Below are positions 15,546-30,342 of a stretch of DNA of 64,000 nucleotides, in pieces. Position 1 is the stretch's first letter, and every line of letters begins with the position of its first letter. A program made the translations under genes and the position numbers. Below the pieces are notes generated by a model that was not told the DNA's origin, ran no database searches, and was given only the letters and a program-made list of their open reading frames with translations. This DNA comes from a virus, in IMG/VR virus record IMGVR_UViG_3300044678_002668, positions 1-64,000 of that record. One strand, given 5' to 3'.

Positions 15546-15704
15546 ATGGAAAACTTGTTTCACATTTCTACATATAAGTTTGTAGGAAATGTTTTTGATT
15601 CGTCAGCTAATTTTATTTCGTTTATAGATACTGTTAATAATAAAGGGTTTTTAAAAACGTCTTTGATTACAGGAAGTATAAGTTTTTTGGATTATTTAAT
15701 ATGA
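15546..15704 (+). CDS. micro-protein A1 (MENL..., 52 aa)
   Basis: manual translation; ATGA-coupled to next. Confidence 0.65.
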   Translation: MENLFHISTYKFVGNVFDSSANFISFIDTVNNKGFLKTSLITGSISFLDYLI

Positions 15705-15859
15705 AACGATTAAACACTCTAGAAGCCACTTATTTATTATATAATCCTCAATACAGTCCAGAATACGTTGGATATAGCCTCTATATCTTTAATCCTAAAG
15801 AAGATACGGTTAAAGCGGCGGTTAGATTCACCATAAAACATAACGCAGAGTATTTATGA
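15701..15859 (+). CDS. micro-protein A2 (MKRL..., 52 aa)
   Basis: ATGA overlaps at both ends. Confidence 0.7.
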   Translation: MKRLNTLEATYLLYNPQYSPEYVGYSLYIFNPKEDTVKAAVRFTIKHNAEYL

Positions 15860-15999
15860 TTAGTTTAGGTATAGGTAACATGCACATGTATAGGTGGTAT
15901 TATTGGGACTCCCAATACATCCTAGAAATCTTTGATGGACTTAGCTTTGATTTCTTTGTTGGGTTTAACGGCTATTCTGAGGTGTATGAATTTATATGA
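15856..15999 (+). CDS. micro-protein A3 (MISL..., 47 aa)
   Basis: ATGA overlaps at both ends. Confidence 0.7.
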   Translation: MISLGIGNMHMYRWYYWDSQYILEIFDGLSFDFFVGFNGYSEVYEFI

Positions 16000-16142
16000 G
16001 TAGTTTAGAAAGTACTCCCTTTTTTAAATACCGTTTAGAGGTCTATCTAAAAGACCTAACTTATATGCAAATAGACTATGGACCTTGGCTACACTCTATT
16101 CATTTAGGACATTGGCACTACTTTCACCAGGGAAGTATTTAA
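15996..16142 (+). CDS. micro-protein A4 (MSSL..., 48 aa)
   Basis: ATGA / TAATG overlaps. Confidence 0.7.
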   Translation: MSSLESTPFFKYRLEVYLKDLTYMQIDYGPWLHSIHLGHWHYFHQGSI

Positions 16143-16453
16143 TGGAAAAGGTACATAAATACAGTCTTCAAGAGCTGGAAGAAAAGATGGAGACCCTATT
16201 TATCAAGTTAGAATACACTGCCAATTCTCTGGATACTTTAGGAGAAAAAATTAGAGAACTTTATAAGGACCCAATGAAATCCGAAACTCTCCATAAATAT
16301 TACATCCGAGAATTTAGCTTGGCCATTGAAAACCACAACTACCAACAAGACCTAGAAATAGTAGTACAATATATCCTAGACGACCATCCAACTCATTTTA
16401 ATGCGAACAGAATAAAGCGGTCTATGAAAAGCTTTAATAGGTGCGTTGAATAA
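16142..16453 (+). CDS. hypothetical helical protein
   Basis: ATG 16142 in TAATG overlap within ORF 16085..16453. Confidence 0.65.
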   Translation: MEKVHKYSLQELEEKMETLFIKLEYTANSLDTLGEKIRELYKDPMKSETLHKYYIREFSLAIENHNYQQDLEIVVQYILDDHPTHFNANRIKRSMKSFNRCVE

Positions 16454-16575
16454 CCCAGCGATATCAAGCATTTGTAAAACAACGCCCTCATATTGGATAT
16501 GAACCCTAATTATATTGCAGGTGAAGCTTTGCTTCCGCCGCAGCCCCTTAAGGGGCTCTTAGAAAGGACTTCCCC

Positions 16576-16869
16576 ATGTACCTGCCCCTACCCACCTCTC
16601 CCCATAAAGCCTGGCTTGCAGCGGGTTTTGTGAGCTTTACAGCCCTACCAGCCTATAGCCTCACTGAATACTATATGCTCCACTACCCTGTAAAAGACGG
16701 GGGTATTCAGGATCATCCAGCCGCTGACCCTAACGTGGAAAGCCTCGTATCCGACTATGGCCCCTATAGCCCCTTAGAAGGCCATAGGAGCTTTTTAGTT
16801 AAGCTTAAAGACCCATCAGCCTACCTATCCCACCCCAAGGTTCACATCACTTCCATGGAGACCTTATGA
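16576..16869 (+). CDS. hypothetical protein
   Basis: 97 aa, AAAGGA SD. Confidence 0.6.
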   Translation: MYLPLPTSPHKAWLAAGFVSFTALPAYSLTEYYMLHYPVKDGGIQDHPAADPNVESLVSDYGPYSPLEGHRSFLVKLKDPSAYLSHPKVHITSMETL

Positions 16870-17102
16870 AATATCCCTTCCAGCCCATAGCCTCGGCTGT
16901 AGGCCCCTATGGCCAGCAACTCCGCATAGAGGCCTGTATGCCCGCTAAATACAGCTCAGAGAAGACTCCAGGCATGACGGCGGTGTATGGCCCCATTTTT
17001 AGGATTGTGATGGAGGAGATAGATCCTAAAGGTAACGTTAAAGAAATTGCGGAGATGTGGGTGGATGAGAAGGCCTTATTAAGTTTAGGTGTGAAAATTT
17101 AG
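16866..17102 (+). CDS. hypothetical protein
   Basis: 78 aa, ATGA overlap, GGAG SD. Confidence 0.65.
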   Translation: MKYPFQPIASAVGPYGQQLRIEACMPAKYSSEKTPGMTAVYGPIFRIVMEEIDPKGNVKEIAEMWVDEKALLSLGVKI

Positions 17103-17220
17103 TGTTTGTGCATAGTAATAGCCCAAGTCACAGTCAAAGTCATCTATACCCCCCCCCAGCAAAACTAAACAAACCTTTAGACAACTCCAAGCGCAAGCGA
17201 TATTACAGTCCGCGCCAAAT

Positions 17221-17252
17221 AAAAAAAAAGGGAGAGGCTTTCGCCCCTCCCC
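17221..17252 (-). terminator. rho-independent terminator
   Basis: minus strand GGGAGGGGC-GAAA-GCCTCTCCC followed by T9, just after stop at 17260. Confidence 0.9.
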
Positions 17253-17259
17253 GTTTCAT

Positions 17260-17604
17260 TTATCCGATCTTCGCTCGTCGCTTTGGCTCAGGACTTGACT
17301 CGCCCTTCGCCTTGGCTTTATAAGCCGCTTTGTTAATCGCTTGGGCCTCAAGGTCTGCTTTTCGTGCCTCATCGTGTGATCCGTCTTCCAGCTCCGTGTC
17401 GGCTTGGACGATCTTCGAGGCGACCTCGAGGAGCTTGATCCACGCCTCACGACCGATCACCGCTTGGCCGCGTGAAAGTTTCACTCGAACCGCTCCGTTG
17501 GCGCAATAGACCGCAACATCCGAATTTATGTCGAGCAACATACGACCGTTGTCTTCTGTTTTTACTTCGAACTGAGAACCTGAAACCTGTTTGAGTTTTG
17601 CCAT
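17260..17604 (-). CDS. stand-alone early gene, hypothetical protein
   Basis: 114 aa with own promoter, TAAGGAG SD and terminator; GC-richer than neighbours. Confidence 0.8.
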   Translation of the reverse strand: MAKLKQVSGSQFEVKTEDNGRMLLDINSDVAVYCANGAVRVKLSRGQAVIGREAWIKLLEVASKIVQADTELEDGSHDEARKADLEAQAINKAAYKAKAKGESSPEPKRRAKIG

Positions 17605-17657
17605 CTGGCCTTTATCTCCTTAGTGTCGCGGTCTTAATTGACCGTTTCGACATACCC

Positions 17658-17686
17658 AGAATAGCGCATCTAATTTTGAAAGTCAA
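17658..17686 (-). promoter_or_regulatory. leftward sigma70-type early promoter
   Basis: TTGACT-17 nt-TATTCT. Confidence 0.8.
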
Positions 17687-17745
17687 GTAATGGATTACGA
17701 ATCTCATTTTGAGACAGAGTGCGTTGTGCGCACCAAGTAAAAAGA

Positions 17746-17952
17746 AAGGGGGCACTGTTAAGGCAGAGTGTTTTAGTAAAGGGGGCACTGTTAAGCTTAC
17801 ACACTCGCGCAAGAAGAAACGCGTTACGCGCATGAAGGGGGCACTGTTAAGAAAATAATTTTGTTTCAATTTGAGATTATTTAATTATATGAGTATGATA
17901 TTATTTTTTATTCCCTTCCCTTGGTTTGATTCAGATTAGGGGCAGTGTTAAG
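17746..17952. repeat. iteron-like direct repeats AAGGGGGCACTGTTAAG
   Basis: exact copies at 17746, 17779, 17835; variant AGGGGCAGTGTTAAG at 17938; AT-rich tract 17852-17910. Confidence 0.85.
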
Positions 17953-18163
17953 TATCAGATTGATATTTAGCTAGGGGATTAGTGTTTTCGCATAATCAAA
18001 TCACTATCTTTTCTCTCCTCATTCTCTCTCCTCATTATCCTTCATTTCTCATGTCCCTGACAGTAGGTATAATAACTTATATCCTAAATATAAATAATAA
18101 TCATACTTAATCTTTGCCCGACCCGAGTCGTTCCGCAGGGTTACGCCACACGAAAAAAATCGT

Positions 18164-18193
18164 TTGACACGACCGGCGGCTCGGTGCTATTCT
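18164..18193 (+). promoter_or_regulatory. rightward sigma70-type early promoter
   Basis: A-tract, TTGACA-18 nt-(TGc)TATTCT. Confidence 0.8.
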
Positions 18194-18250
18194 GGTTTTG
18201 GTCGGCCGCTCCCTCGCACTAATTAAGCCCGCTCTAATAAGGAGGTTGTT

Positions 18251-18523
18251 ATGTTATACAGAGTTATTCCTTTCTGGTATAAGCATGAGCAGTTCTTTAA
18301 TGTATATGACGAGGTGAATAAGCGCACTGTTAAGAGCTTCTTTCTCTCTAAGGTTGAAGCGGATCTCTATATTAGAAAGCTTCTTGGTGAGGACACTATC
18401 ATTCAAGATAAGCCCGCTTCTTTCCATAAGAATCCTTGGAAGTCTTGTAGAGAGAAGCGCCTTCTTAGAGAGAAGGCTTTGAATACTAAATTGGATAATA
18501 TTAAGAAGAAGTTTGCCCTTTAA
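18251..18523 (+). CDS. early hypothetical protein
   Basis: 90 aa, TAAGGAGGT SD. Confidence 0.8.
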   Translation: MLYRVIPFWYKHEQFFNVYDEVNKRTVKSFFLSKVEADLYIRKLLGEDTIIQDKPASFHKNPWKSCREKRLLREKALNTKLDNIKKKFAL

Positions 18524-18539
18524 TTTAGGAGGTTCTCTT

Positions 18540-18752
18540 ATGAACGTCAGCAAAAATATCGTTGTGTGGCCATACTATTACAAACCTATTCCAAAACCTT
18601 TTGTAGTTGTTCAATTGGAAGATCATTTTATGGTTTGCAAGGTAGCCGAAGATGGCGAGCTTTTGGAGGAAGTGTCAGTGAAACACTGGAATAAGCTTCG
18701 TGTTCGACGATGGGCCTTTGAATTCGCCAATTTTAATTCCATTAAAAATTAA
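18540..18752 (+). CDS. early hypothetical protein
   Basis: AGGAGGT SD before ATG 18540. Confidence 0.75.
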   Translation: MNVSKNIVVWPYYYKPIPKPFVVVQLEDHFMVCKVAEDGELLEEVSVKHWNKLRVRRWAFEFANFNSIKN

Positions 18753-18784
18753 GGTTGATCCCATATCTACAAAGGACAAGTGTT

Positions 18785-18976
18785 ATGAACAAATTTGTTG
18801 TTAAGGCTAAGTTTAGAGGTCCTAAACTTGACATCATGGTGGTTGATAGGTTTGCCACTCGTGAAGAAGCTGAAGAATTCATTGAGTATTGTTTTGATTT
18901 AGGATATGTGAAGAGAGATCATGGCTACTATCACATAGACATGTTTGAGGGACTGTTCATAGAAGACTTTACTTAA
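18785..18976 (+). CDS. early hypothetical protein
   Basis: AAGGA SD before ATG 18785. Confidence 0.7.
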   Translation: MNKFVVKAKFRGPKLDIMVVDRFATREEAEEFIEYCFDLGYVKRDHGYYHIDMFEGLFIEDFT

Positions 18977-18987
18977 GAGGTTCTCAT

Positions 18988-19134
18988 ATGCACCGTCTTG
19001 ATTACATTGGCTCCTATCTTAAATATGAAATCCATCGTATTACCATTAAGGGTGGCGGTACGACATATGATAAGAGTCTTTTATTTGGATGGCATGAAGC
19101 TGCAAAAGAGGGCGTCTATTATGCGCTCTTGTAA
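18988..19134 (+). CDS. micro-protein (MHRL..., 48 aa)
   Basis: GAGG SD; overlaps next gene; not in ORF track. Confidence 0.65.
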   Translation: MHRLDYIGSYLKYEIHRITIKGGGTTYDKSLLFGWHEAAKEGVYYALL

Positions 19135-19441
19135 GAAGTGTGGAGACTCCTATAATCCAGAACTTAGGCGAGGTAAGGGTGGCCTCATTACAGAATGTCA
19201 ATTCTGTGCTGAAGAGAAGGTAGTTAAATATACGGGCAACATGATATATGACCATAAGACTGGATGTTCCATACAAATCAATACAGACCCTAGTCTTACG
19301 GCCTATATTAGAAAGTCCACAGAGCTTAAGAACAAAGGTTCTAACCTCGCTAATAACCTCAAGGTAAGTGGCATAACAAAGGGTATGGGTAGATGTTTGG
19401 TTTCTGTAGCGGCGTCTAATGCTAAAGGAAGGAAGGTATAA
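19121..19441 (+). CDS. Zn-ribbon (CxxC...CxxC) protein
   Basis: MRSCKKC...ECQFC; start 19121 within ORF 18998..19441. Confidence 0.65.
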   Translation: MRSCKKCGDSYNPELRRGKGGLITECQFCAEEKVVKYTGNMIYDHKTGCSIQINTDPSLTAYIRKSTELKNKGSNLANNLKVSGITKGMGRCLVSVAASNAKGRKV

Positions 19442-19442
19442 G

Positions 19443-19826
19443 ATGGACTTAACAGGCTTTTTTATTTTCTCCACTGATAATCCTAAACACACTCCAAAGA
19501 AAGATAAGCATGCCGTATTGGGCTATCTTATGGAGAACTCAGAGGTTATGTATAAAACTTCTGGAGTATTTGGAGGTAAAGAAGAGGTTACATACATGGC
19601 TAAGTTTAAGGGAGAGGCCATGTTTTATAGGATTAAAGATGTCATCTTGGAAGACTTAGGTCAAGAAGCTTTCTTAGAAGTTACACAAACAAAAGTAATA
19701 TTCCACACTTTAGGAAACAGTGATTTCTTTTTAAGGAAAGAAGAGATTTCTGTTAGCGATACTAGAGACCATGTTAAGCTGCCTGATGGACGTAGTTTAC
19801 ATTTTGTAATGGAGGTATCTTTGTGA
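19443..19826 (+). CDS. hypothetical protein
   Basis: GGAAGG SD before ATG 19443. Confidence 0.7.
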   Translation: MDLTGFFIFSTDNPKHTPKKDKHAVLGYLMENSEVMYKTSGVFGGKEEVTYMAKFKGEAMFYRIKDVILEDLGQEAFLEVTQTKVIFHTLGNSDFFLRKEEISVSDTRDHVKLPDGRSLHFVMEVSL

Positions 19827-19999
19827 TACGTATACCAAGATGGAAAAAAGACAATAACAATTATAGATTTGCCATTAGAAAAGATAGAAAAATAGAAGCC
19901 TCCTATAGTGCAAGGTTTACATACTATTGTTTGAATGTTGGTAAAGTTATTGGCGCTTTTGAAGAAGTGTTTAGAAACTCTTGGAGGCTTTCATGTTAA
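19823..19999 (+). CDS. micro-protein B1 (MIRI..., 58 aa)
   Basis: GTGA overlap, GGAGG SD. Confidence 0.65.
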   Translation: MIRIPRWKKDNNNYRFAIRKDRKIEASYSARFTYYCLNVGKVIGAFEEVFRNSWRLSC

Positions 20000-20151
20000 G
20001 TACTATGGGTGTACTTATGTCTCTTGCTGGGTTTGTTATGTCTGTTGCCTATCTTCCACTTAATGCACAGACCTCTTATCATTTCTTTTGTGTAGCGGTG
20101 GTGTTTGGATTAGTGGCCGCCATTGGAGCTTATGCAGAGCAGAAAGAGTAG
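19993..20151 (+). CDS. small two-TM membrane protein (52 aa)
   Basis: GGAGG SD; MLSTMGVLMSLAGFVMSVAYLP...FFCVAVVFGLVAAIGAY. Confidence 0.65.
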   Translation: MLSTMGVLMSLAGFVMSVAYLPLNAQTSYHFFCVAVVFGLVAAIGAYAEQKE

Positions 20152-20158
20152 GGTGTAT

Positions 20159-20305
20159 ATGGAACAGATTCCTAATTGGAATGGTAGGTTTCACATCATA
20201 GGACTTCTTGTTCAAGAGTTTGGCATGGATGTTCAATACTCAACTCAGCCTAGAAGTTTTTTAGAAATCAGAGATTTCTCTTGGTATTTAGATAGGTCCA
20301 TATGA
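20159..20305 (+). CDS. micro-protein B2 (MEQI..., 48 aa)
   Basis: ATG 20159; ATGA-coupled to next. Confidence 0.65.
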   Translation: MEQIPNWNGRFHIIGLLVQEFGMDVQYSTQPRSFLEIRDFSWYLDRSI

Positions 20306-20472
20306 GAAGTTTATTTAAGCGTACAGGTTGTGTGTGGTATATTAAGTTATTTATTGATTCTGGAATTCCAGTCATGCGGTATGATAGTGCCACTAACATT
20401 AAACATTTCGCCACCTATAACGATTTAACAGAAGGGCTTCATTATGTTTTGGTTTGTATATACGTGGTCTGA
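20302..20472 (+). CDS. micro-protein B3 (MRSL..., 56 aa)
   Basis: ATGA overlap. Confidence 0.6.
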   Translation: MRSLFKRTGCVWYIKLFIDSGIPVMRYDSATNIKHFATYNDLTEGLHYVLVCIYVV

Positions 20473-20623
20473 TGGTACATATATCCATTCTGAATGTGTT
20501 GAGAGCTTCGATGAGATGAGAGAGACTTTAAGAAAATATAGAGAAGCTTTTGGTCCTTGTGTTAAGGTGTGGTATAGAGGTATGGATAGAGGAGAAGCTA
20601 CACAAATTAAGAAGGTAGGTTAA
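20444..20623 (+). CDS. small hypothetical protein (MFWF..., 59 aa)
   Basis: manual translation, tiles between neighbours. Confidence 0.6.
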   Translation: MFWFVYTWSDGTYIHSECVESFDEMRETLRKYREAFGPCVKVWYRGMDRGEATQIKKVG

Positions 20624-20624
20624 C

Positions 20625-20804
20625 ATGAAATTTTGTAAAGTATATCTGCTCTTTAATGATGGCTACACTCTCACCTTTCTATGCACACCTGATAAGTGTG
20701 AGTCCTACATCAATCGCATTACTCATAGCCGCCCTGCTAAACACGTATCTGTTAAGGAGTTCATTAAGCTTCCTCAAAGTGAAAAAGAATATTGGGAGTA
20801 TTGA
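20625..20804 (+). CDS. small hypothetical protein (MKFC..., 59 aa)
   Basis: AGGT SD; manual translation. Confidence 0.6.
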   Translation: MKFCKVYLLFNDGYTLTFLCTPDKCESYINRITHSRPAKHVSVKEFIKLPQSEKEYWEY

Positions 20805-20806
20805 TA

Positions 20807-20956
20807 ATGAGACGTCTTGACAATTACAAATATTCCGCTGCTAGTTTTTATTATGCTCCTCAACACGTTTTCGATTTATTTTCAGAAGAATTTGAAAAGA
20901 TTTTATTGGTTAGTTCTTTTGTATATTCTTTTCGAGCTTGTTTAACAAGATTATAA
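20807..20956 (+). CDS. micro-protein B4 (MRRL..., 49 aa)
   Basis: GGAG SD; aligns ungapped to B5. Confidence 0.7.
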   Translation: MRRLDNYKYSAASFYYAPQHVFDLFSEEFEKILLVSSFVYSFRACLTRL

Positions 20957-20967
20957 AAGAGGTGAGC

Positions 20968-21117
20968 ATGAATAAGTTAAATGATAGTGGATATTTTGTA
21001 TGTAGACATATATACAGTCCTCCTGAAATTTGGAATATATATAGCGATTATGTACAAGCACAGCTTTGTGTTGGAGAAATACGAAATTATTTCAAACAAG
21101 TACTTGGAGTGTTATAA
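20968..21117 (+). CDS. micro-protein B5 (MNKL..., 49 aa)
   Basis: GAGGTG SD; aligns ungapped to B4. Confidence 0.7.
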   Translation: MNKLNDSGYFVCRHIYSPPEIWNIYSDYVQAQLCVGEIRNYFKQVLGVL

Positions 21118-21119: not shown

Positions 21120-21326
21120 ATGCAAACATTATTCCGAACTAGATATGCTAAGTATGCCGCTTTTAACTTTAGAAAAACAAAAGGAGGAGAGCTAGTTGTA
21201 GACATTATTGTTAGGCCAGAAAGTAGTCAAGAAAAGCTCATTAAGAAGGAGGTGTCTTATACCCGCTTTGTTAAACACATCAAAACAAATGGGTGGTTAA
21301 ATGAAATTCGCAAAGCTTCATCCTAA
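21120..21326 (+). CDS. hypothetical protein
   Basis: ATG 21120 with GGAG SD. Confidence 0.6.
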   Translation: MQTLFRTRYAKYAAFNFRKTKGGELVVDIIVRPESSQEKLIKKEVSYTRFVKHIKTNGWLNEIRKASS

Positions 21327-21501
21327 GTATGGTTTGTTACAGTTTGAATATAACAAAGAGAGGTGTACACTCAAAGTAATTGACGGTATTGGTAATGACC
21401 TGATGCTAAAGTGGCCTAAGAAAATGTCTCGTTTGTATTTCGATTATGTTATGTTAGATAAAGCAATGGAAGAGGAGATGAAGAAATGTCCAATGAACTG
21501 A
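21301..21501 (+). CDS. hypothetical protein
   Basis: 66 aa ORF tiling the operon. Confidence 0.6.
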   Translation: MKFAKLHPKYGLLQFEYNKERCTLKVIDGIGNDLMLKWPKKMSRLYFDYVMLDKAMEEEMKKCPMN

Positions 21502-22193: not shown

Positions 22194-23357
22194 ATGAATA
22201 TTCGTACACTTAAAAAGGTATTGCCCGTATTGTTTTCACATAACATCGTTCCATTCTTGTGGGGTAATCAAGGTATTGGTAAGACCCAATCAGTAGGACA
22301 GCTAGCTAAAGAGCTGGGCTATGGATTTGTCCATCTCAACTTTGCCACTCAAGAGGTGGGTGATTTGGTAGGTTTGCTTGATAAGCGGCCTGATGGTACA
22401 GTGGCCCACTTGCGTCCTAATTGGATGCCCACTGACGAGGATGGTCCCCACATCATCTTCATGGATGAGCTTAACCGCTCTCATCCTGACGTGATTCAGG
22501 CCCTATTCTCGCTCATTACAGAGCGTCGTATCCATCAACATAAGCTGGGTAAGGAGTGTTATTTAGTGGCTGCTGGCAACTACAATAACGAGAAGTTCAC
22601 TGTCACTGACACGTCAGATCAGGCATGGAACTCTCGCTTCTGCCATCTTGATGTGACTCCATCGGTGGAAGAGTGGCTTGATTACATGTCTGATAAGCAT
22701 GGAACTAAAGCTTCAGATGTGTTGGATTTTATTAGGGAACTTCCCTCTAATCTAGAGGGCTCTAGTAAATCTTCTTCCACTCTTGACACTAACTTCTTGC
22801 GTCCTGATAGACGTTCATGGGAGTCCATCATCAAGCTTGATTGTGAAGAACGGCTTAGTGAGGGAGTTAAGTTCGAGGTATTTCAAGGTCTTGTAGGTAC
22901 GGCATCAGCCGCTAGCTTCCTTTCTCATAAAGAAAACAAGGAGAAAGCTGTAAACCTTGACGACATTCTCCTTCGTTTTGATAAGGGAGTTAAGGAACGC
23001 TTGGATAAGCTTGTTAATAAAGCCGTCTCTACGGAAGTTCGGTTTGACATCTACAGTCAACCTGTTAATGAGCTGCTAGAGAAAGCCACAACGAAGCCTA
23101 AGTACCTGCTTGAGAATGTGCATAACTTGATTAAGTTCCTTGAACATATGCCTTCAGAGATGGCGGTTAATGTTCTCACTAAGCTGGGTTCTCTCAGCCA
23201 AGATCAAGTTAAGGAAGATGATTTGGATATTGTTAGGGAGCTTAAAGACAACACAGTTAACAATGCAGAACTGTTGTCTAAGGTTCTCTTGAACAAAGAG
23301 AAAGAAGCCGAGCAGGTTCTTCCTAAGAAACGTGGTCGGCCTCGTAAGGTAGTTTAA
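22194..23357 (+). CDS. MoxR/dynein-related AAA+ ATPase
   Basis: Walker A GNQGIGKT, GDLVG, Walker B FMDELNR, AAGN, D.A..SRF, RSW; C-terminal AT-hook-like KRGRPRK. Confidence 0.92.
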   Translation: MNIRTLKKVLPVLFSHNIVPFLWGNQGIGKTQSVGQLAKELGYGFVHLNFATQEVGDLVGLLDKRPDGTVAHLRPNWMPTDEDGPHIIFMDELNRSHPDVIQALFSLITERRIHQHKLGKECYLVAAGNYNNEKFTVTDTSDQAWNSRFCHLDVTPSVEEWLDYMSDKHGTKASDVLDFIRELPSNLEGSSKSSSTLDTNFLRPDRRSWESIIKLDCEERLSEGVKFEVFQGLVGTASAASFLSHKENKEKAVNLDDILLRFDKGVKERLDKLVNKAVSTEVRFDIYSQPVNELLEKATTKPKYLLENVHNLIKFLEHMPSEMAVNVLTKLGSLSQDQVKEDDLDIVRELKDNTVNNAELLSKVLLNKEKEAEQVLPKKRGRPRKVV

Positions 23358-23400
23358 TAATTAAGTATTGTTTAAGGCTCTTTATTTAGGAGATAATTAT

Positions 23401-24669
23401 ATGAGTATTGTTCCAATGAATACTAAAGCTAACGGAGTTCCCTTCAAACTCGATGAGCTTATGATTAAGCTCCTGACTAAAGAGCCTTTCTTTGCTAACC
23501 TAATCTATCAATGTAAGATTAAGTACGACCACCCTAAGATTCCCACAGCGGCAGCCACATTTGAAAAGTATACTCCTGTCATCTTCATCAACAGAGACTT
23601 CATGAGCATGTATACTCAAGATCAACAGGTAGCCGTACTTAAACATGAAGTGTTGCACCTATTACTTGGCCATGTGCAAGATGCCCGAGCTAAGGGTAAA
23701 CATATGCAGGTATGGAACTATGCTGTTGATTGTGCCATCAATCAATACATTGAAAATATTCCTGAGAAGATGTGGGTATTTAATCCCGAATCTAAAGAGT
23801 GGGAATTAGGAGGTTCTGCCATCACCCTTTCCACCCTTAGAAAAATGCTTAACCAACCTAATCTAGAAGCTCTACAAGCCGCTGAATACTATTATGAAAA
23901 GCTTATGGAGAAAGGTAAAGAGAACTTTGAGAAGAACAAAAGCATGGGCTCCGTTATGGATGTTCATGAAGATATTCCTGACAGTGGAGAGGGTACAGAA
24001 GAAGGTCAAGAGGAAGGTAATACTCCAGGACAAGGAAGCCTACAACAAGAACAGATGAAAGCCGCCGCTAAGGATATGTTAAGTAAAGCCCTTAAGCAAA
24101 CTAGTCCAGGTTCTGTTCCTGGAGATTTGGTTAAAGCTTTTGATTTCTTGTTCCAAGAATCTTCGCTTAGCTGGAAGTCTATGCTTCGTAACTTTGTGGC
24201 TAGTGCCACGTCAAGCAAACGTAAGGCCACACGTAAGAAGCCCCATCGTAGGTTTGGATTGGAAGTTCCTGGATATAAGAAACATCGGGAGCTTAAGGTG
24301 GCCTATTGCATGGATACTTCTGGTAGTGTTAGTGAAGAGCAGTTTAATTCCGGTGTATCGGAAATGATTAACATGCTTAAGAGCGGGATGATTAGTGAGC
24401 TGCATGTGATTTATGCAGACTGTAAGGTTAACAAGGTAATCAAGGTGGATAAGGTAAGCAAGGTGCCATATGAGCGACATGGCTATGGTGGTACTGCCTA
24501 TCAACCAGCCATTGACAAAGCTAAAGAGATTGGATGTGATGCCATTATTTATTTCGGTGATATGGATACCGCTGATACTCCTGAGAATCCTCATATCCCT
24601 TTTATGTGGCTAACTGTTGGGTCCACTGAAAAGCCTGGAAATTTTGGACTTATGGTGGAGCTTAAGTAA
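23401..24669 (+). CDS. HEXXH metallopeptidase-like + VWA domain protein (DUF2201-type)
   Basis: HEVLH, WNYAVDCAIN, MIDAS DTSGS, GYGGT, YFGD. Confidence 0.9.
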   Translation: MSIVPMNTKANGVPFKLDELMIKLLTKEPFFANLIYQCKIKYDHPKIPTAAATFEKYTPVIFINRDFMSMYTQDQQVAVLKHEVLHLLLGHVQDARAKGKHMQVWNYAVDCAINQYIENIPEKMWVFNPESKEWELGGSAITLSTLRKMLNQPNLEALQAAEYYYEKLMEKGKENFEKNKSMGSVMDVHEDIPDSGEGTEEGQEEGNTPGQGSLQQEQMKAAAKDMLSKALKQTSPGSVPGDLVKAFDFLFQESSLSWKSMLRNFVASATSSKRKATRKKPHRRFGLEVPGYKKHRELKVAYCMDTSGSVSEEQFNSGVSEMINMLKSGMISELHVIYADCKVNKVIKVDKVSKVPYERHGYGGTAYQPAIDKAKEIGCDAIIYFGDMDTADTPENPHIPFMWLTVGSTEKPGNFGLMVELK

Positions 24670-24943: not shown

Positions 24944-24951
24944 GGGGAACT

Positions 24952-25095
24952 ATTTTTTTAATAGAAAGACTTATTAGAATTCTCTATAGAAGTTCCACGT
25001 ATAATGTGGAGATTGAATTTTTAGTTACTTATCAAGGAGGTTGGTCTCCTTTAGTTAGAACAACTTTGATGAGATTGTTATATGACGTTTATTGA
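24952..25095 (+). CDS. micro-protein C3 with ATT start (xFLI..., 47 aa)
   Basis: AGGGGGA SD, ATT codon, open frame fills the gap exactly. Confidence 0.45.
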   Translation: MFLIERLIRILYRSSTYNVEIEFLVTYQGGWSPLVRTTLMRLLYDVY

Positions 25096-25240
25096 ATATA
25101 TTTTTTCAGAATATGGTCCCAGTTATGAAATGTATAACATGTTCAAATGGTATAGCGATTATAAAAGATTAATGGATACGAATGGTGTTTCTAATTTTAT
25201 AATGGAAGATAGTTTACAATTTAACCTGGACAGTATATGA
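25082..25240 (+). CDS. micro-protein C4 (MTFI..., 52 aa)
   Basis: MYNMFKW motif. Confidence 0.7.
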   Translation: MTFIEYIFSEYGPSYEMYNMFKWYSDYKRLMDTNGVSNFIMEDSLQFNLDSI

Positions 25241-25383
25241 GTAGGATTAAATTTAGGGGTTCAAGAAGTAGATTGCAAATGGTTGAGATGTTTTTTTGGA
25301 TGGGTGATGGTTATTCTCAATATATAGACAGCTCTCAATTTAAATCAATAATACGTGTTTTTATGGAAGAGAGGGTGTTGTGA
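25237..25383 (+). CDS. micro-protein C5 (MSRI..., 48 aa)
   Basis: ATGA overlap; MVEMFFW motif. Confidence 0.7.
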   Translation: MSRIKFRGSRSRLQMVEMFFWMGDGYSQYIDSSQFKSIIRVFMEERVL

Positions 25384-25556
25384 ATAAGATTAAGTATTTG
25401 AACTCAGATTTTATTCGTCATGCTGATGCAGCCCACAGTATGCGAAACATATTTAACTGGTCAAAATTACCTTCAAAACTTTCTTCAAGTTTTTATCATG
25501 GTATGACTGTGTTTGGTATTAAAGAACATTTCTTTGAGTGTTTAGAGTGTTTATAA
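25380..25556 (+). CDS. micro-protein C6 (MNKI..., 58 aa)
   Basis: GTGA overlap; MRNIFNW motif. Confidence 0.7.
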   Translation: MNKIKYLNSDFIRHADAAHSMRNIFNWSKLPSKLSSSFYHGMTVFGIKEHFFECLECL

Positions 25557-25569
25557 GGAGTATGTGCCA

Positions 25570-26283
25570 ATGTCTAAGTTCCAATATAAGTTCCTCATGT
25601 TAACCTTTGTAATATTGTTCTTTCTATTAGGCCTTAAGGCAGGAGCTACTGGCGACCAAGTAAAGGTATTGGTGGTGGATGGAGAGCTTCCCTATGGGGC
25701 GTATAAGAAGAATGGAGGGGTGTCTTGTGGTATGGCTCCCATTACAGAACCCTTTTATCCTAATAACGAAACTGTTAGACATGCCCTTAACATTGCCTTA
25801 ACCATTAGTCAGGATAATGATGGGGTATGTGTGGATGTTATGCCTCTCTACACCACGTCCAGTAATGCCGATAAGGGGGGATGGGAATATGATGGGGACC
25901 TCTATCATGCCGCCCTTAAGGCTGGTCTTAAGTACGACATTGTACACCTGTCCTTGGCTGGAGATAGGGAAGCTTCCATTGAGAAGCGTCTCATTAAGGA
26001 TTTAATTAAGTCTGGAGTCATTGTGGTGGTTAGCTCAGGTAATTGTGAGGAGAATGTTGAGACATGTAAGAAGGTACAATGGCCAGCTAACTACATTCGA
26101 GAAGAGGTCTTTAAGAACTCTAATAGGTTCGTAGTGGTGAGAGCTAAGAGCGTATCTAATAATCTGGAATATGAGGATGTGGCCTTCACTGAGAAAGCTT
26201 GTAGCCATCCTAGAGGCATGACTAAAGGAATGTGTGGGAGTAGTCAAGCCGCTGCTTGGTATACAAGGAAGCTCATTCCATGA
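25570..26283 (+). CDS. exported minimal subtilisin-like (S8) peptidase
   Basis: signal peptide; VKVLVVDG (Asp), RHALNIA (His), VVSSGN (oxyanion Asn), GSSQAAA (Ser). Confidence 0.75.
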   Translation: MSKFQYKFLMLTFVILFFLLGLKAGATGDQVKVLVVDGELPYGAYKKNGGVSCGMAPITEPFYPNNETVRHALNIALTISQDNDGVCVDVMPLYTTSSNADKGGWEYDGDLYHAALKAGLKYDIVHLSLAGDREASIEKRLIKDLIKSGVIVVVSSGNCEENVETCKKVQWPANYIREEVFKNSNRFVVVRAKSVSNNLEYEDVAFTEKACSHPRGMTKGMCGSSQAAAWYTRKLIP

Positions 26284-26405
26284 AAATGCTAAGCAGCCTC
26301 ACACTCGTAGTTCCCATATCAAACATAGATGATTTAATTAGTAAACAAACTCCGTATTTAGATTCACAATATCAAATATGGAATGAAGGAATATTAATCC
26401 TATGA
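26280..26405 (+). CDS. micro-protein D1 (MKML..., 41 aa)
   Basis: ATGA overlap; clear paralog of D2. Confidence 0.75.
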   Translation: MKMLSSLTLVVPISNIDDLISKQTPYLDSQYQIWNEGILIL

Positions 26406-26548
26406 TAAAATTAAACAGTTTCCTCAACTTAACCTACGACTTACGCATCTTAGCTCCCATCTCAATTGTACATGATTTAATTCATAAACCGACTTTGTAT
26501 TTAACTTATCGTGAAGATATGTGGAATAAAGGATGTGTTTATGCGTAG
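26402..26548 (+). CDS. micro-protein D2 (MIKL..., 48 aa)
   Basis: ATGA overlap; clear paralog of D1. Confidence 0.75.
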   Translation: MIKLNSFLNLTYDLRILAPISIVHDLIHKPTLYLTYREDMWNKGCVYA

Positions 26549-26663
26549 CTTAAAACCTATTTATAACTTGTTTGGATGGGATGATTTGTTGGATAGGATG
26601 TATTCTCATATACCTTATGCCACCTATGAATTCTGGAAAGAGGCTTCTGAATGGAATACTTAA
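26541..26663 (+). CDS. micro-protein D3 (MRSL..., 40 aa)
   Basis: AAAGGA SD; 8-nt overlap. Confidence 0.7.
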   Translation: MRSLKPIYNLFGWDDLLDRMYSHIPYATYEFWKEASEWNT

Positions 26664-26812
26664 TTGTTTTCCGTGAAAAATATAGTTATAAACTACATAT
26701 GATAAACACCATAGAACCTTCAATGGAAATTGATTATAAAATGTTAGAACATGAAAGCTATAGACCAGCCCATTTTACCTTTTGGTCGAATGTAAATTGG
26801 AATGTGGTATGA
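26651..26812 (+). CDS. micro-protein D4 (MEYL..., 53 aa)
   Basis: GAGG SD; 13-nt overlap. Confidence 0.7.
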   Translation: MEYLIVFREKYSYKLHMINTIEPSMEIDYKMLEHESYRPAHFTFWSNVNWNVV

Positions 26813-26955
26813 ACAATATTTCTAATCTTTATCTAGCATTGTATACTAGTACGTATTTTATTATTAAAGCAAGAGAGAATAATCCTATAGCTATAGATGC
26901 TCCTGCTTATTGGAGCGACATCATTAAGAAAGTTGAAAGGTATGAGTATGTCTAA
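26809..26955 (+). CDS. micro-protein D5 (MNNI..., 48 aa)
   Basis: ATGA overlap. Confidence 0.7.
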   Translation: MNNISNLYLALYTSTYFIIKARENNPIAIDAPAYWSDIIKKVERYEYV

Positions 26956-27094
26956 ATTAAAAGAGCTTTATAGGATTGTGTTTGAACGCAGAGATCTTCA
27001 TGTTAAGATTAACCCTCTTTATTTTCATGAAGAGTTTTATCCTGGGCATAACTTCTTTTGGGATACCGCTATAAGGAAAGGGAATTTTCTGTGA
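26948..27094 (+). CDS. micro-protein D6 (MSKL..., 48 aa)
   Basis: AAAGG SD; 8-nt overlap. Confidence 0.7.
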   Translation: MSKLKELYRIVFERRDLHVKINPLYFHEEFYPGHNFFWDTAIRKGNFL

Positions 27095-27252
27095 CTAATT
27101 TAGAATACAATATGTGGGATGAATGTAATGTTATATCTGAACATAATGTTTGGGTAGAACACACTACTCCTGAAAATAGAAATCATTTTCAAGCTTCTTT
27201 TACAAGTAACTGGTCTTGGTGGATTATGAAAACAGGGGAATATATTACATGA
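27091..27252 (+). CDS. micro-protein D7 (MTNL..., 53 aa)
   Basis: GTGA overlap. Confidence 0.7.
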   Translation: MTNLEYNMWDECNVISEHNVWVEHTTPENRNHFQASFTSNWSWWIMKTGEYIT

Positions 27253-27584
27253 AATACGAAAAGTATAAAGATTTCACACAGTTAACAGGATCGTTAGAGG
27301 ACATTGCTCTTGGTCTTGAGGATGAGCTAGTTAATGTGGACATTAAAGTCAAGCGTAAGAACTTCTTGGAGTGGTTGGGAGGAGATGAAGTTATCCTAGA
27401 ATCTGAATGGCCTCTTTATTGGGGCTCATCCTTTACTCTTAAAGGAGTATTGGAACCTCAAGAAGGAACCTGGGAAGTGGAGTTAGCGGTTACTGAGGGG
27501 GGAGATGAGGTGAGTGTATACGATATGGGGAACACTCTCTATTCCTACTTAGACGAACTCTTATCAGATTACACTAATACGTGA
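27249..27584 (+). CDS. acidic hypothetical protein
   Basis: ATGA overlap at 27249; E/D-rich, 111 aa. Confidence 0.7.
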   Translation: MKYEKYKDFTQLTGSLEDIALGLEDELVNVDIKVKRKNFLEWLGGDEVILESEWPLYWGSSFTLKGVLEPQEGTWEVELAVTEGGDEVSVYDMGNTLYSYLDELLSDYTNT

Positions 27585-27599
27585 CATCCTGTTTATAGC

Positions 27600-27995
27600 T
27601 ACCCTTGCGCTTCGTGCTTTTAGGCACTACGCTTTTGGCGTTTGCTTAGATACACTAACCCTATTACGGGACTTTAAGTTACGCCGTTCCTTTTGGGAAC
27701 ATTGGCGGGACATATAGCTTAGAACCCTTATGGGTTCAGTCTAGGGTGGCTTATGCCACCGAGCTGTTCAAGAGGGTAGAGCCTCTCTAGGGTAGTATGC
27801 CCAGCTCTTGACCACCTGTGGTTAGGCTAGTAGAATATATATCTACAGTCGGTTAACCTAACTCTTTGGGCGGGCCTTGCGCCTTCACTATATGTCCAGG
27901 TTCAGACCCTTGATTGTCCTTTAAGAAGGGGCACTAGTAGTCTAACCTGTTTGGCCTGGCCTCATTAGCTTCGGCGTCTAATGGGTAGGTCTTAC
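27600..27995 (+). ncRNA. candidate large structured non-coding RNA/ssDNA element (strand from G-U pairs; leftward promoter argues for minus)
   Basis: no ORF >=60 aa; more than 12 stems incl. GGACATATAG(27708-17)/CTATATGTCC(27888-97), GAACCC-ttat-GGGTTC, GGTGGC-ttat-GCCACC. Confidence 0.65.
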
Positions 27996-27999
27996 TATT

Positions 28000-28028
28000 A
28001 TTGTAATATTATTTGTTACTTAAGTAAA
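28000..28028 (-). promoter_or_regulatory. leftward promoter(s) facing the structured element
   Basis: TAACAAATAAT at 28018-28008 nested in TTTACT-17 nt-TACAAT. Confidence 0.55.
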
Positions 28029-28053
28029 GAATAAAAAGAGTAAAAGGAGTGAC

Positions 28054-28245
28054 ATGATTATCTTAGATTACTTTGATGGGTCTCTTATTAAAGAGTTAAG
28101 ACGAGAGATTAAGAACTTACAATTTCAACAAGAATATATGAAACAGTTTGAAGATATTTATGTAGGTACTCGAGACAGTTTTTTAAGTATTGGAATAAAT
28201 TATATTTCTGACCATTATAAGAGGTATATGGATACATGGTTTTAA
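28054..28245 (+). CDS. micro-protein E1 (MIIL..., 63 aa)
   Basis: AAGGAG SD; RDSFL motif. Confidence 0.75.
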   Translation: MIILDYFDGSLIKELRREIKNLQFQQEYMKQFEDIYVGTRDSFLSIGINYISDHYKRYMDTWF

Positions 28246-28418
28246 TCACAAATGAACTTGGATTTTATAACCACTATCTAAAACATACAGATGGAGATAT
28301 TCCTGCTGAAGAAGATAGTCCAATCTGGTATTATTTTTTTGGTAGTGATAGGGATGGTATGCTAGTATCTCATTCATATTTATGGGAATTTATTAAAGAA
28401 CATATGGAGACTATGTAA
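28236..28418 (+). CDS. micro-protein E2 (MVLI..., 60 aa)
   Basis: RDGML motif. Confidence 0.75.
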   Translation: MVLITNELGFYNHYLKHTDGDIPAEEDSPIWYYFFGSDRDGMLVSHSYLWEFIKEHMETM

Positions 28419-28419
28419 G

Positions 28420-28608
28420 ATGACGAGCCTACATGAGTTTGGAATTGTAAGATATTATCTTTTTGATAGCGGCGCCACTTTAGACATCTTAGAGCTTAAA
28501 AAAACTCTCTATTATAGAGAACAGCCTTCCATGAGAGACAGTTTTTTATCTATAAAAACAACTTATTTATTCTCTGATTTGGATACTTATTTAGAAAGAG
28601 GTTTATGA
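28420..28608 (+). CDS. micro-protein E3 (MTSL..., 62 aa)
   Basis: RDSFL motif. Confidence 0.75.
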   Translation: MTSLHEFGIVRYYLFDSGATLDILELKKTLYYREQPSMRDSFLSIKTTYLFSDLDTYLERGL

Positions 28609-28760
28609 AAATCTTATCTTATGAGAATGCAATACCAGCATACTTTGACTATGATGTTGTTTACTATCTTTTTTTCGCAGCTTCTGGTGATGGTTTTTTA
28701 ACATTAGGAGATTGCGATACGATGCTACGTATTATGGAAAAGGTTTTGGAAAATTTATGA
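28605..28760 (+). CDS. micro-protein E4 (MKIL..., 51 aa)
   Basis: ATGA overlaps; GDGFL motif. Confidence 0.7.
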   Translation: MKILSYENAIPAYFDYDVVYYLFFAASGDGFLTLGDCDTMLRIMEKVLENL

Positions 28761-28939
28761 ATCCTATATATAAGCCTATTAGCCTGATATTAAACATGTA
28801 CTATAGTGTTAAACAAAACCTGTTAGTAAATAATGTAGCTCATAATGGTGGATTTACTTATCTAAGAGATGGATGGTTTACTAGAAATACTTCTAAACTT
28901 TTATTTGAAATTTTTGAAGAGGCTTTTAATGTACTCTAA
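28757..28939 (+). CDS. micro-protein E5 (MNPI..., 60 aa)
   Basis: ATGA overlap; RDGWF motif. Confidence 0.7.
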   Translation: MNPIYKPISLILNMYYSVKQNLLVNNVAHNGGFTYLRDGWFTRNTSKLLFEIFEEAFNVL

Positions 28940-29714
28940 ATATGATGACCATACCTTTCTTCCCCTAACAATTAACGAACATGGCCGTCCCGATGGAGGA
29001 GATAGTTTAGCTAACTTTGCAAGATATTACCTAGCATGTTTAGCCACTGGCAAACCCTTTACATTAGAACCTCTAACACATGTCCTCTCCCCAGAAGGAG
29101 TTTGTATTAGACATCCAGGAGAAGGCTTTTATTGCAGCTTCTATTATCAAGGTCCGCTTTTTTGGAACAACCCTAAAGAAGTTAGTAGGGACCAAATGAA
29201 AGCTTTAATGTGGGTTATGGCCTATTATAAGAAACATCCCGAATTGTTAAAGGACAAGCCCAAATTCGCAACACTCTTCACACAGCTCGAATACCTTTAT
29301 TCTAAAAGGCTATATATGTTTGCCCAGAATGGTGACGTTATGTTGCCTTTCTTTATGGCTAAATCTTATCCTTGGCTCCTGTTTAGAGATTTAGAAATGT
29401 TAATTAACCTTGCCATTGTTTGTGGGGTATTACCAATTGTAAGGCATGATAAGCCTTGGGGATTTGGTAAAGGATACAAGGTCATGTTTAGTTGGCAAGA
29501 TAAGGAAGACTGGTGTGATGGAGATTGCAACATGCTTGTTGACTTGATTGGTTCTTTTCTGATAAAAGATACCTGGATGTCAAAGTGGATGCGACGTATC
29601 TATAATAAAATTAGAGGAGATAAATATATCCAACACTATTATAGAAATGAATCTGGCAATAATGAAGAGATTGGTAGGGAGCTAGCTTTAGCTGGAAAGA
29701 GCAGTACTTTATGA
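28929..29714 (+). CDS. hypothetical enzyme-like protein
   Basis: start 28929 (GAGG SD); DGGDS, IRHP and SRDQ motifs. Confidence 0.7.
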   Translation: MYSKYDDHTFLPLTINEHGRPDGGDSLANFARYYLACLATGKPFTLEPLTHVLSPEGVCIRHPGEGFYCSFYYQGPLFWNNPKEVSRDQMKALMWVMAYYKKHPELLKDKPKFATLFTQLEYLYSKRLYMFAQNGDVMLPFFMAKSYPWLLFRDLEMLINLAIVCGVLPIVRHDKPWGFGKGYKVMFSWQDKEDWCDGDCNMLVDLIGSFLIKDTWMSKWMRRIYNKIRGDKYIQHYYRNESGNNEEIGRELALAGKSSTL

Positions 29715-29854
29715 AATCCATTAAAGATCGAGATGAATTTAATTCTCATGTATATGATTCTTCAATAGCGTATTGTTTTTTTGAACATCGTAGCTCTGCC
29801 ATAAGTTCAGATTTTTCTAACACTCTTTTAGAGGAATATATATGGAACTTATAA
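29711..29854 (+). CDS. micro-protein F1 (MKSI..., 47 aa)
   Basis: ATGA overlap. Confidence 0.65.
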   Translation: MKSIKDRDEFNSHVYDSSIAYCFFEHRSSAISSDFSNTLLEEYIWNL

Positions 29855-29970
29855 GTGTTATGTATCTTATTAAAAATAGGCTGTATAGCTTCTATATAGA
29901 AGTTCTATACAATACAAAATTTTACTTAGTTACTGAGTTTTATTATGGTTTTATACAGGAGTGGTTTTGA
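29842..29970 (+). CDS. micro-protein F2 (MELI..., 42 aa)
   Basis: GAGGA SD; 13-nt overlap. Confidence 0.65.
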   Translation: MELISVMYLIKNRLYSFYIEVLYNTKFYLVTEFYYGFIQEWF

Positions 29971-30095
29971 ATCTTTTACAAGATATACATAGCATGCAAA
30001 ATCATTCATTGCAATATATACATATAATTTACTTTTTAGAAGGAACCTCTCTTATTAGTTTTCCAAACTATACACCATACATAGAGTATTTATAA
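29967..30095 (+). CDS. micro-protein F3 (MNLL..., 42 aa, TTG start)
   Basis: AGGAG SD; TTGA overlap. Confidence 0.65.
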   Translation: MNLLQDIHSMQNHSLQYIHIIYFLEGTSLISFPNYTPYIEYL

Positions 30096-30217
30096 TGCGT
30101 TTATTACGAAGCTTATCAGCAGAACATTTTCCTACTTTTATCTTTCTTAAAACTTTTTATACTTTTAAATGGCAACTTTATGAAGGATTAAAAAGAGGTT
30201 GCAAATGTTTTTATTAG
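30095..30217 (+). CDS. micro-protein F4 (MRLL..., 40 aa)
   Basis: TAATG overlap. Confidence 0.65.
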   Translation: MRLLRSLSAEHFPTFIFLKTFYTFKWQLYEGLKRGCKCFY

Positions 30218-30342
30218 ATACAGTTTCAAGAAAACTAAACAATAAAGATCTCACAATGAATCTTTTTTCTTTGCGAGATTATGAAAAGTCTTTTAAATAC
30301 CGTTTAGTTGTGGACATAATGAAAAAAGGAGAAAGGCTATAA
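30205..30342 (+). CDS. micro-protein F5 (MFLL..., 45 aa)
   Basis: GAGGT SD; 13-nt overlap. Confidence 0.65.
   Translation: MFLLDTVSRKLNNKDLTMNLFSLRDYEKSFKYRLVVDIMKKGERL

Follow-up and report, generated by a model that had tools for sequence, protein, structure and literature searches.

The stretch of DNA analysed here (hereafter, the window; 64,000 nucleotides [nt]) covers positions 1–64,000 of one contig of 79,502 bp, IMG/VR record IMGVR_UViG_3300044678_002668, the source of which is a phage. Between conserved early and DNA-metabolism genes of this phage, the + strand carries blocks of small open reading frames (ORFs), labelled arrays A–G, and the sequence evidence says that about 38 of these are real, back-to-back, translationally coupled microprotein genes, with aromatic-rich products of 38–105 residues. 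Almost all of the products have Leu or Ile at residue 4 (Leu/Ile4), a rule that is real and that is specific both to this gene class and to this phage lineage.

Coupled microprotein genes in tandem arrays

A preliminary description of the window, made from its letters and a list of ORFs, had proposed that the AT-rich gaps are fully tiled by coupled small ORFs, and all of the ORFs it named are present on the + strand at the coordinates it gave. The tiling is complete in arrays A, D, E, and F, where the coverage by + strand ORFs of at least 38 amino acids (aa) is 1.00, and the coverage is 0.84 in array C. First-order Markov simulations (n=300) gave mean coverages of 0.10–0.19, and none of the 300 simulations was as high as the observed value. 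The ORFs are joined by 17 NTGA junctions (4-nt overlap), by 13-nt overlaps at C1/C2, D3/D4, F1/F2, and F4/F5, by a 14-nt overlap at C3/C4, and by two overlaps of 8 nt, one of 10 nt, and two of 1 nt. The description had also credited many of the ORFs with a Shine-Dalgarno site, and the 4-mer Shine-Dalgarno core was indeed found at -18 to -5 in 23 of 39 ORFs, compared to 17% of random positions. Its size range of 38–63 aa does not hold for G1, which has 105 aa; B10 has 68 aa and B11 has 66 aa.

Codon usage sets the array ORFs apart from spurious ORFs (codon log-odds: array ORFs +0.03, spurious ORFs -0.25, true gene segments +0.25; p=3e-12 for array versus spurious ORFs). The third codon position is T in a fraction of 0.445 in array ORFs versus 0.425 in large genes, G is most frequent at codon position 1, and codon-position heterogeneity is strong in arrays B, D, and E and weaker in A, F, and G. 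Tyr, Trp, Glu, and Asp occur above the expectation from random translation of the same base composition, and Cys occurs below it. The bodies had been described as rich in Tyr, Phe, and Trp, in agreement with the excess of these three residues over both the large genes and random translation.

Thirty sequences (24 array ORFs and six neighbouring genes or alternative starts) were looked up in a public protein collection (NCBI, IMG, ENA or Logan gene calls), which holds 27 of them; none of the unambiguous ATG starts submitted is missing, and several of the internal starts are present. The three absent sequences are C2, D6, and F3 with the starts given in the preliminary description. Eight members had been drawn from an internal start and not as the longest ORF, and among the members with a reader-chosen or internal start, seven of ten occur in the collection exactly as drawn. 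Variants diverged by 2–16% keep the frames open; they come from near relatives with contigs of 21,196, 27,069, and 30,081 nt (97–98% identity). On this sequence evidence, the genes are real and coupled.

The junctions show a second regularity, upstream of the NTGA overlap. T occupies position -1 in 16 of 17 NTGA junctions, compared to 243 of 803 controls (30%; p=9e-8), and the upstream ORF accordingly ends in a final codon nT(A/G/T), which encodes Leu, Ile, Val or Phe, with Glu frequent at -3. The nucleotide logo reads GAG at -11 to -9, followed by a T-rich spacer. A GAGG-like Shine-Dalgarno site, a U-rich spacer, and the NTGA overlap together make up the region in which ribosomes bind for the next gene, and we infer from the logo that this region is probably the cause of the C-terminal pattern of the upstream ORF.

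Leucine or isoleucine at residue 4 in divergent proteins

The constancy of Leu/Ile at position 4, which had been noticed by eye, holds under several comparisons; both positional enrichments of the arrays stand. Leu/Ile4 was found in 36 of 40 array ORFs, whereas only 6 of 64 genes with ≥100 aa in this phage have it (p=3e-17). The NTGA-coupled array ORFs conform without exception (17 of 17), compared to 136 (16%) of 841 equally defined NTGA-coupled small ORFs from 160 loci of related phages (p=9e-14). When each start was assigned solely as the start codon closest to the upstream stop, Leu/Ile4 was present in 30 of 45 small ORFs between 15.5 and 30.7 kb (p=5e-11 versus 0.21), the exceptions lying mostly in the 17–18 kb region and in array B, where B6, B7, and B11 do not conform. 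Among the 160 loci and our genome, only the + strand of the latter stands out (p=8e-10); the next-best locus, L083, reaches p=0.003 before correction.

Few of these residues are imposed by the overlapping upstream gene. The preliminary description had counted about four junctions in which the upstream stop forces codon 4, and the four 13-nt overlaps do so; the 14-nt overlap fixes the third base of codon 4, which brings the junctions constrained by an upstream stop to five. Codon 4 is TTA, CTA, CTT, TTG, ATT, ATA or ATC, and even the homologous E1–E5 use TTA, ATC, CTA, TTA, and ATA, respectively. Val, Phe, and Met are never found at residue 4 (0/36), even though the bodies contain 7.8% Phe and 5.0% Val, and TTT is never codon 4 although T is the commonest base at +10 and is present at +12. 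With seven codons in use and Val, Phe, and Met excluded, the sequences point to a constraint on the amino acid and not on the nucleotide. Positions 5 and 6 are polar in 24 and 23 of 36 members, respectively, and position 7 is hydrophobic in 24 of 36, a weak amphipathic trend.

Four simpler accounts of codon 4 were considered and rejected. Many codon-4 triplets, together with a following A or G, give TAA or TAG at +11 to +13 in the frame of the upstream ORF and might act as a backup stop, but the next in-frame stop after the TGA is not nearer than in controls (median 7 vs 10 codons, p=0.2), and eleven members have Leu/Ile without such a stop. If ribosomes hopped from the final codon upstream onto a matching codon 4, take-off and landing codons should agree, but they differ at most junctions (e.g., ATA vs TTA at A1/A2 and A3/A4). 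Use of TGA as a sense codon does not fit the large genes, which are intact under table 11, or the lack of tRNA genes. Mere A/U-richness at codon 4 is excluded by the other pure A/T codons, because AAA, AAT, and TAT are missing there along with TTT.

Outside residue 4, little is shared. The arrays had been interpreted as one expanded superfamily, and homology searches did not bear this out. All-vs-all blastp gave a clear match only for D1–D2 (E=3e-7), with E1–E3, E2–E4, and D4–D6 marginal; leave-one-out hidden Markov models (HMMs) built on the bodies recovered members of D and E and none of A, B, C, and F; and hhalign gave D versus E a probability of 0.1%. A leave-one-array-out position-specific scoring matrix (PSSM) of residues 2–14 without residue 4 carried no signal, its scores being no better than those of internal segments or unrelated small ORFs. 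Paralogue groups are detectable only in D, E, and C4–C6: the alignment of E1–E5 has a common YY and RD(G/S)(F/W/M)(L/F), the D members have an invariant Trp and several begin with MxxLxxLY, and C4–C6 have a common M-x-[NE]-[MI]-F-x-W. The N-termini of D1 and D2 are offset by seven residues in an ungapped local alignment; this register shift was discarded as a proof of convergence and is not decisive, because M1, L4, and S6 can be matched just as well by introducing a 7-residue indel. In a near relative with a 21-kb contig, 19 of 322 residues have changed in the small ORFs versus 11 of 497 in large neighbours. The Atlas model of E2 (predicted local distance difference test [pLDDT] 0.63) has no meaningful neighbours.

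The microprotein genes also appear to be restricted to their own lineage, as judged from sequence searches. In agreement with the earlier statement that no described family matches, Pfam and PHROGs gave nothing, word-based and exhaustive HMMER searches returned only the lineage itself, and homologues outside it were not found. Word-based searches with the D and E profiles recovered lineage members alone, and the E profile, searched against 1.84 billion representatives, recovered the lineage plus two repeat proteins (P0170 and P0171), which were judged spurious because E ~1e-4 is reached only through summed tandem repeats. No homologue of an array ORF was found in the 160 related loci, and the idea that array ORFs are remnants of decayed larger genes was dropped, since none matches any ORF of these loci. 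In the relatives with ~39% identity in the VWA protein (L097, L081, and L083), small ORFs unrelated to ours fill the corresponding slots behind the AAA and VWA genes, and also behind a ~235-aa ORF at the S8-like position (matched by position, not by family). Small-ORF arrays of their own were seen in these slots at L083:7528-9441 and L097:9664-14862. L083 has three 43–48-aa paralogues starting with MFHL, MFRL, and MFKL (i.e., MF(H/R/K)L), and several of the L097 small ORFs end in W-x-L-x-Y/E-Q-L-like motifs.

Array members and their genomic neighbourhood

All array members lie on the + strand. Array A consists of A1 (15546–15704, 52 aa, MENL; this exact sequence is in the public collection), A2 (15701–15859, 52 aa, MKRL), A3 (15856–15999, 47 aa, MISL), and A4 (15996–16142, 48 aa, MSSL), the last three with ATGA junctions; an 87%-identical variant of A4 retains the frame and L4.

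In array B, B1 (18988–19134, 48 aa, MHRL) is doubtful, because it overlaps a 147-aa ORF (18998–19441) in another frame. This ORF has a zinc-ribbon-like CxxC...CxxC pattern and weak PHROG matches to HNH endonuclease, and its true start may be near 19127, which would make it coupled to B1. B2 (19823–19999, 58 aa) has a GTG start, (M)IRI, and a GTGA junction, and is followed by the hydrophobic, membrane-like B3 (20005–20151, 48 aa, MGVL), by B4 (20159–20305, 48 aa, MEQI), and by B5 (20302–20472, 56 aa, MRSL, ATGA junction). B6 (20444–20623, MFWF) and B7 (20625–20804, MKFC) are outside the residue-4 rule; B8 (20807–20956, 49 aa, MRRL), B9 (20968–21117, 49 aa, MNKL), and B10 (21120–21326, MQTL) follow it, and B11 (21301–21501, MKFA) again does not.

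In array C, C1 (24669–24818, 49 aa, MEVI) forms a TAATG junction with the zincin-VWA gene, and C2 (24806–24943, 45 aa, MDFI), which is absent with this start from the public collection, has its codon 4 forced by the C1 stop. C3 (24952–25095) is an open frame without an ATG, GTG or TTG start, in which ATT at 24952 would give (I)FLI. It is followed by C4 (25082–25240, 52 aa, MTFI), C5 (25237–25383, 48 aa, MSRI, ATGA junction), and C6 (25380–25556, 58 aa, GTG start, (M)NKI, GTGA junction). Array D begins with D1 (26280–26405, 41 aa, MKML), which has an ATGA junction with the S8-like gene and is a paralogue of D2 (26402–26548, 48 aa, MIKL), and continues with D3 (26541–26663, 40 aa, MRSL, 8-nt overlap), D4 (26651–26812, 53 aa, MEYL), D5 (26809–26955, 48 aa, MNNI, ATGA junction), D6 (26948–27094, 48 aa, MSKL), and D7 (27091–27252, 53 aa, GTG start, (M)TNL, GTGA junction). 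For D6, public callers give a 65-aa form from 26897 that starts with MLLL, in which Leu is also residue 4.

Array E comprises E1 (28054–28245, 63 aa, MIIL, with a strong Shine-Dalgarno site), E2 (28236–28418, 60 aa, MVLI, 10-nt overlap), E3 (28420–28608, 62 aa, MTSL), E4 (28605–28760, 51 aa, MKIL, ATGA junction), and E5 (28757–28939, 60 aa, MNPI, ATGA junction). A ~70%-identical orthologue of E4 (P0172) also starts with MKIL. Comparison of 28605–28939 with proteins P0145, P0172, and P0147 showed that E4 of near relatives ends in ...ETYESYI (55 aa) and not in ...ENL (51 aa), a difference that an indel of 1 nt at the ATGA junction of E4 and E5 would explain and that would thus mean that junctions vary between strains. 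E5 is called from Met14 on a 970-nt contig. Array F contains F1 (29711–29854, 47 aa, MKSI, ATGA junction), F2 (29842–29970, 42 aa, MELI), F3 (29967–30095, 42 aa, TTG start, (M)NLL, TTGA junction; public callers do not match this start), F4 (30095–30217, 40 aa, MRLL, 1-nt overlap), and F5 (30205–30342, 45 aa, MFLL). Array G consists of G1 (47916–48233, MINL) and G2 (48230–48346, 38 aa, MNLL), both with ATGA junctions.

The arrays are part of a + strand block (13351–51181) that encodes a ClpP-like protease, a thymidylate synthase (ThyA), a DUF6745 protein, an AAA+ (MoxR-like) ATPase, a zincin metallopeptidase-VWA protein (DUF2201), a weak S8-like protein, an intein-bearing class II ribonucleotide reductase, an HNH-AP2 endonuclease, a dUTPase, and a PD-(D/E)XK nuclease, with a primase-helicase, a family A DNA polymerase, a metallophosphoesterase, and a trypsin-like peptidase at its 3' end. 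Terminase, portal, and tail genes are on the - strand. The AAA+ gene (22194–23357, + strand) and the zincin-VWA gene (23368–24669, + strand) are conserved neighbours with 289 relatives, and the S8-like gene (25564–26283, + strand), which separates arrays C and D, encodes a hydrophobic, signal-peptide-like N-terminus. The block thus contains four peptidase-like proteins, i.e., ClpP-like (13351–14160), zincin-VWA (23368–24669), S8-like (25564–26283), and trypsin-like (48913–49740), and several of the four genes directly adjoin microprotein arrays. The ribonucleotide reductase gene (33941–36748) is split by an intein with a LAGLIDADG domain, and the HNH-AP2 endonuclease (37035–37526) is of the homing type.

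No isolated phage is close to this contig: its polymerase has its best match in Flavobacterium phages, at 33% identity, megablast and blastn searches of phages had no hits, an exact 23-mer search of viral contigs gave no match, and scans with the VWA protein reached relatives only at ≤39% identity. A VWA relative at 58% identity is P0002, encoded on a Logan contig. Neither tRNA genes nor Rfam families were detected.

A candidate late promoter motif, TAACAAATAATAT, occurs in five copies with at most one mismatch (0.5 expected), all on the - strand (4421–4433, 10971–10983, 17898–17910, 28006–28018, and 59311–59323), three of them just upstream of - strand structural genes and two within the + strand early block. 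One of the latter belongs to a - strand unit (17229–17910) inside that block, which comprises the TAAAAAATAATAT motif at 17898–17910, two ORFs without a PHROGs match (17612–17869, 85 aa; 17260–17604, 114 aa), and, at 17252–17229, a strong hairpin that resembles a terminator and carries a T-run; the surrounding 16.5–18.2 kb region has a higher GC content (44%). A further feature is an ORF-free island of ~470 nt (27585–28053), which extends from gene 27249–27584 to array E, has a - strand late-type motif at its right edge, and has no Rfam match at gathering thresholds.

Explanations for the residue-4 rule

We favour, with moderate confidence, the reading that the arrays encode early accessory microproteins that evolve fast by duplication and divergence and share a protein-level requirement at the N-terminus. 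Several small paralogue groups would have been made by tandem duplication followed by fast divergence, most clearly in D, E, and C4–C6. Leu/Ile4 may be the first residue to be buried in an amphipathic segment at the N-terminus (Met1, Leu/Ile4, and a hydrophobic residue 7), and could be required to fold or stabilise the protein or to contact a shared partner. The most probable role of the proteins would be that of early host-takeover or counter-defence accessory factors; we infer both this function and the protein-level reason for Leu/Ile4. Common descent alone would not explain why one residue is strictly kept among saturated neighbours.

Several observations weigh against this reading. The leave-one-out HMMs, the N-terminal PSSM, and hhalign found no cross-array similarity that would speak for a common origin, and D1 and D2 differ with proportions of nonsynonymous (pN) and synonymous (pS) changes of 0.38 and 0.40, which looks neutral or diversifying and not purifying. 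The AlphaFold2 models of E3 and D2 are helical, with low confidence (pLDDT 52 and 57, respectively), the codon-position periodicity of array C is not significant, and the codon score of the array ORFs is below that of the large genes. Finally, the total lack of Val and Met at residue 4 is stricter than would be expected from a soft structural requirement.

The preliminary description had explained the arrays by a single superfamily with a variable body for target recognition and a constant N-terminal M-x-x-[L/I], by which a hub protein of the phage would dock or handle its members. It named the MoxR/VWA pair (here AAA+/zincin-VWA) and the ClpP-like protease as candidate hubs, to which the S8-like and trypsin-like peptidases can be added. 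We consider this model unlikely. It would account for a rule that is specific to gene class and lineage, and for arrays that abut peptidase genes, with C being TAATG-coupled to the zincin-VWA gene, D being ATGA-coupled to the S8-like gene, A lying downstream of the ClpP-like and ThyA genes, and G lying upstream of the trypsin-like gene; the T-even internal proteins, which combine a constant N-terminal capsid targeting sequence with diverse bodies, provide a precedent (PMC3012670). However, there is no cross-array homology, the first 14 residues share nothing except residue 4, and relatives that have the AAA gene, the VWA gene, a gene in the S8 slot (by position only), and small-ORF slots are without the rule. 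One Leu/Ile residue carries ~2.5 bits, which would suffice for a requirement and not for an address, so that Leu/Ile4 is unlikely to be a specific address label; it cannot specify a partner, because 16–18% of unrelated small ORFs have the same feature. A more explicit version, with a constant handle and a variable body, has about 36 microproteins present a helix face (fMet1, Leu/Ile4, and hydrophobic 7) to one phage-encoded hub that would load, process or present the bodies against host targets. We rate it slightly lower still; if true, it would be an early-gene counterpart of the T4 capsid-targeting system, with one of the four peptidases or the MoxR/zincin-VWA proteins as the hub. The related idea that the N-terminus directs the microproteins into the prohead for injection with the DNA, like T4 internal proteins, is highly improbable. 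The phage encodes a protease of the ClpP family, the kind used for head maturation, and the hydrophobic residues 1, 4, and 7 would resemble the T4 capsid targeting sequence, but the genes are on the + strand alongside replication and nucleotide-metabolism genes, the candidate late promoter motif is on the - strand only (5/5 copies), no conserved 10-residue N-terminal peptide exists, and [LI]-x-E occupies residues 4–6 in only 2 of 36 members (D6 and E3).

An explanation at the level of translation, in which weakly initiated, coupled micro-ORFs depend on Leu/Ile4 (or on its codon) to re-initiate efficiently or to pass through early elongation and the N-terminus itself is meaningless, is also unlikely in our view, if less so than the other alternatives. 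In E. coli, protein yield depends strongly on the amino acids at codons 3–5, which act through pausing and abortive synthesis, and the favoured K|N-Y|I motif includes Ile (PMC6920384). The junctions also have other regularities that are driven by translation (T at -1, the U-rich spacer, and the weak Shine-Dalgarno site), and in a chain of coupled ORFs the losses at each start would multiply. On the other hand, large and presumably highly expressed genes of the same phage, read by the same ribosomes, have Leu/Ile4 in only 6 of 64 cases, and the NTGA-coupled small ORFs of related phages in only 16% (n=841). Tyr, Lys, and Asn, which E. coli favours, are never residue 4 here and Leu is, and the missing pure A/T codons do not fit either. 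A general translation rule is unlikely, because the large genes of the phage and the related coupled small ORFs are without it and the residues favoured in E. coli (Lys/Asn, then Tyr/Ile) do not match. Also improbable is the view that the ORFs are filler, kept open only for ribosome cover of a long early transcript (e.g., against Rho or RNases), or decaying duplicates with drifting bodies. The near-equality of pN and pS in D1 versus D2, an amino-acid composition that goes partly towards random AT-rich translation, the intermediate codon score, and the lack of homologues elsewhere agree with it; however, Cys is rarer and Tyr, Trp, Glu, and Asp are commoner than in random translation, motifs are conserved inside D, E, and C4–C6, sizes stay within 38–68 aa, and an amino-acid-specific rule at residue 4 is not expected of filler.

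Among known systems, the T-even internal-protein (IP) locus has the nearest documented logic. It encodes diverse counter-defence proteins, such as IPI* against GmrSD, that have only a capsid targeting sequence in common (Repoila et al. 1994, reviewed in PMC3012670). Both loci consist of clustered phage genes for small and very diverse proteins, in which only an N-terminal feature is common. The T-even sequence, however, is a conserved peptide of ~10 residues that is cleaved by the prohead protease, whereas here only residue 4 is kept and no cleavage motif is present. The prohead-protease cleavage motif at the end of the targeting peptide is Leu/Ile-x-Glu; the array proteins have no conserved targeting peptide, and only D6 and E3 have this motif at residues 4–6. 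Furthermore, the IP locus has 3–5 genes, compared to about 38 here, which are placed among early and replication genes. The jumbo phages G and 121Q have tandem arrays of >30 similar genes (Hua et al. 2017, PMC5646251). They resemble our arrays in that tandem duplication leads to long same-strand arrays, but their copies are described as very similar, whereas most of ours are without detectable similarity and are spread over at least six blocks of a 79.5-kb genome; the similarity of neighbouring copies that marks G and 121Q is present for D1–D2, E1–E5, and C4–C6 and absent in A, B, and F. Features of precursors of ribosomally synthesized and post-translationally modified peptides (RiPPs) were not found, since there is no conserved leader and Pfam gave no RiPP-type enzymes among the neighbours scanned.

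T4-type and other large phages have plastic regions of small orphan genes between their conserved modules. The arrays are like these ORFan regions in that small orphan genes occupy slots between conserved genes and are replaced in related phages (L097, L081, and L083). They are best filed with them, with the residue-4 rule as an addition; in the literature searched, a near-universal single-residue N-terminal rule is not known to have been described for such regions.

No part of phage genomes is less well understood than the small genes, from which anti-defence and host-takeover factors are known to come, and here about 38 of them in one phage come with an unusually clean positional rule that can be probed by mutation. 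If the rule reflects a shared partner, it would reveal how a phage handles a whole effector repertoire; a cause in translation would make it a new rule for coupled micro-ORFs. Either way, it gives gene callers and experimenters a way into a gene class that is mostly passed over.

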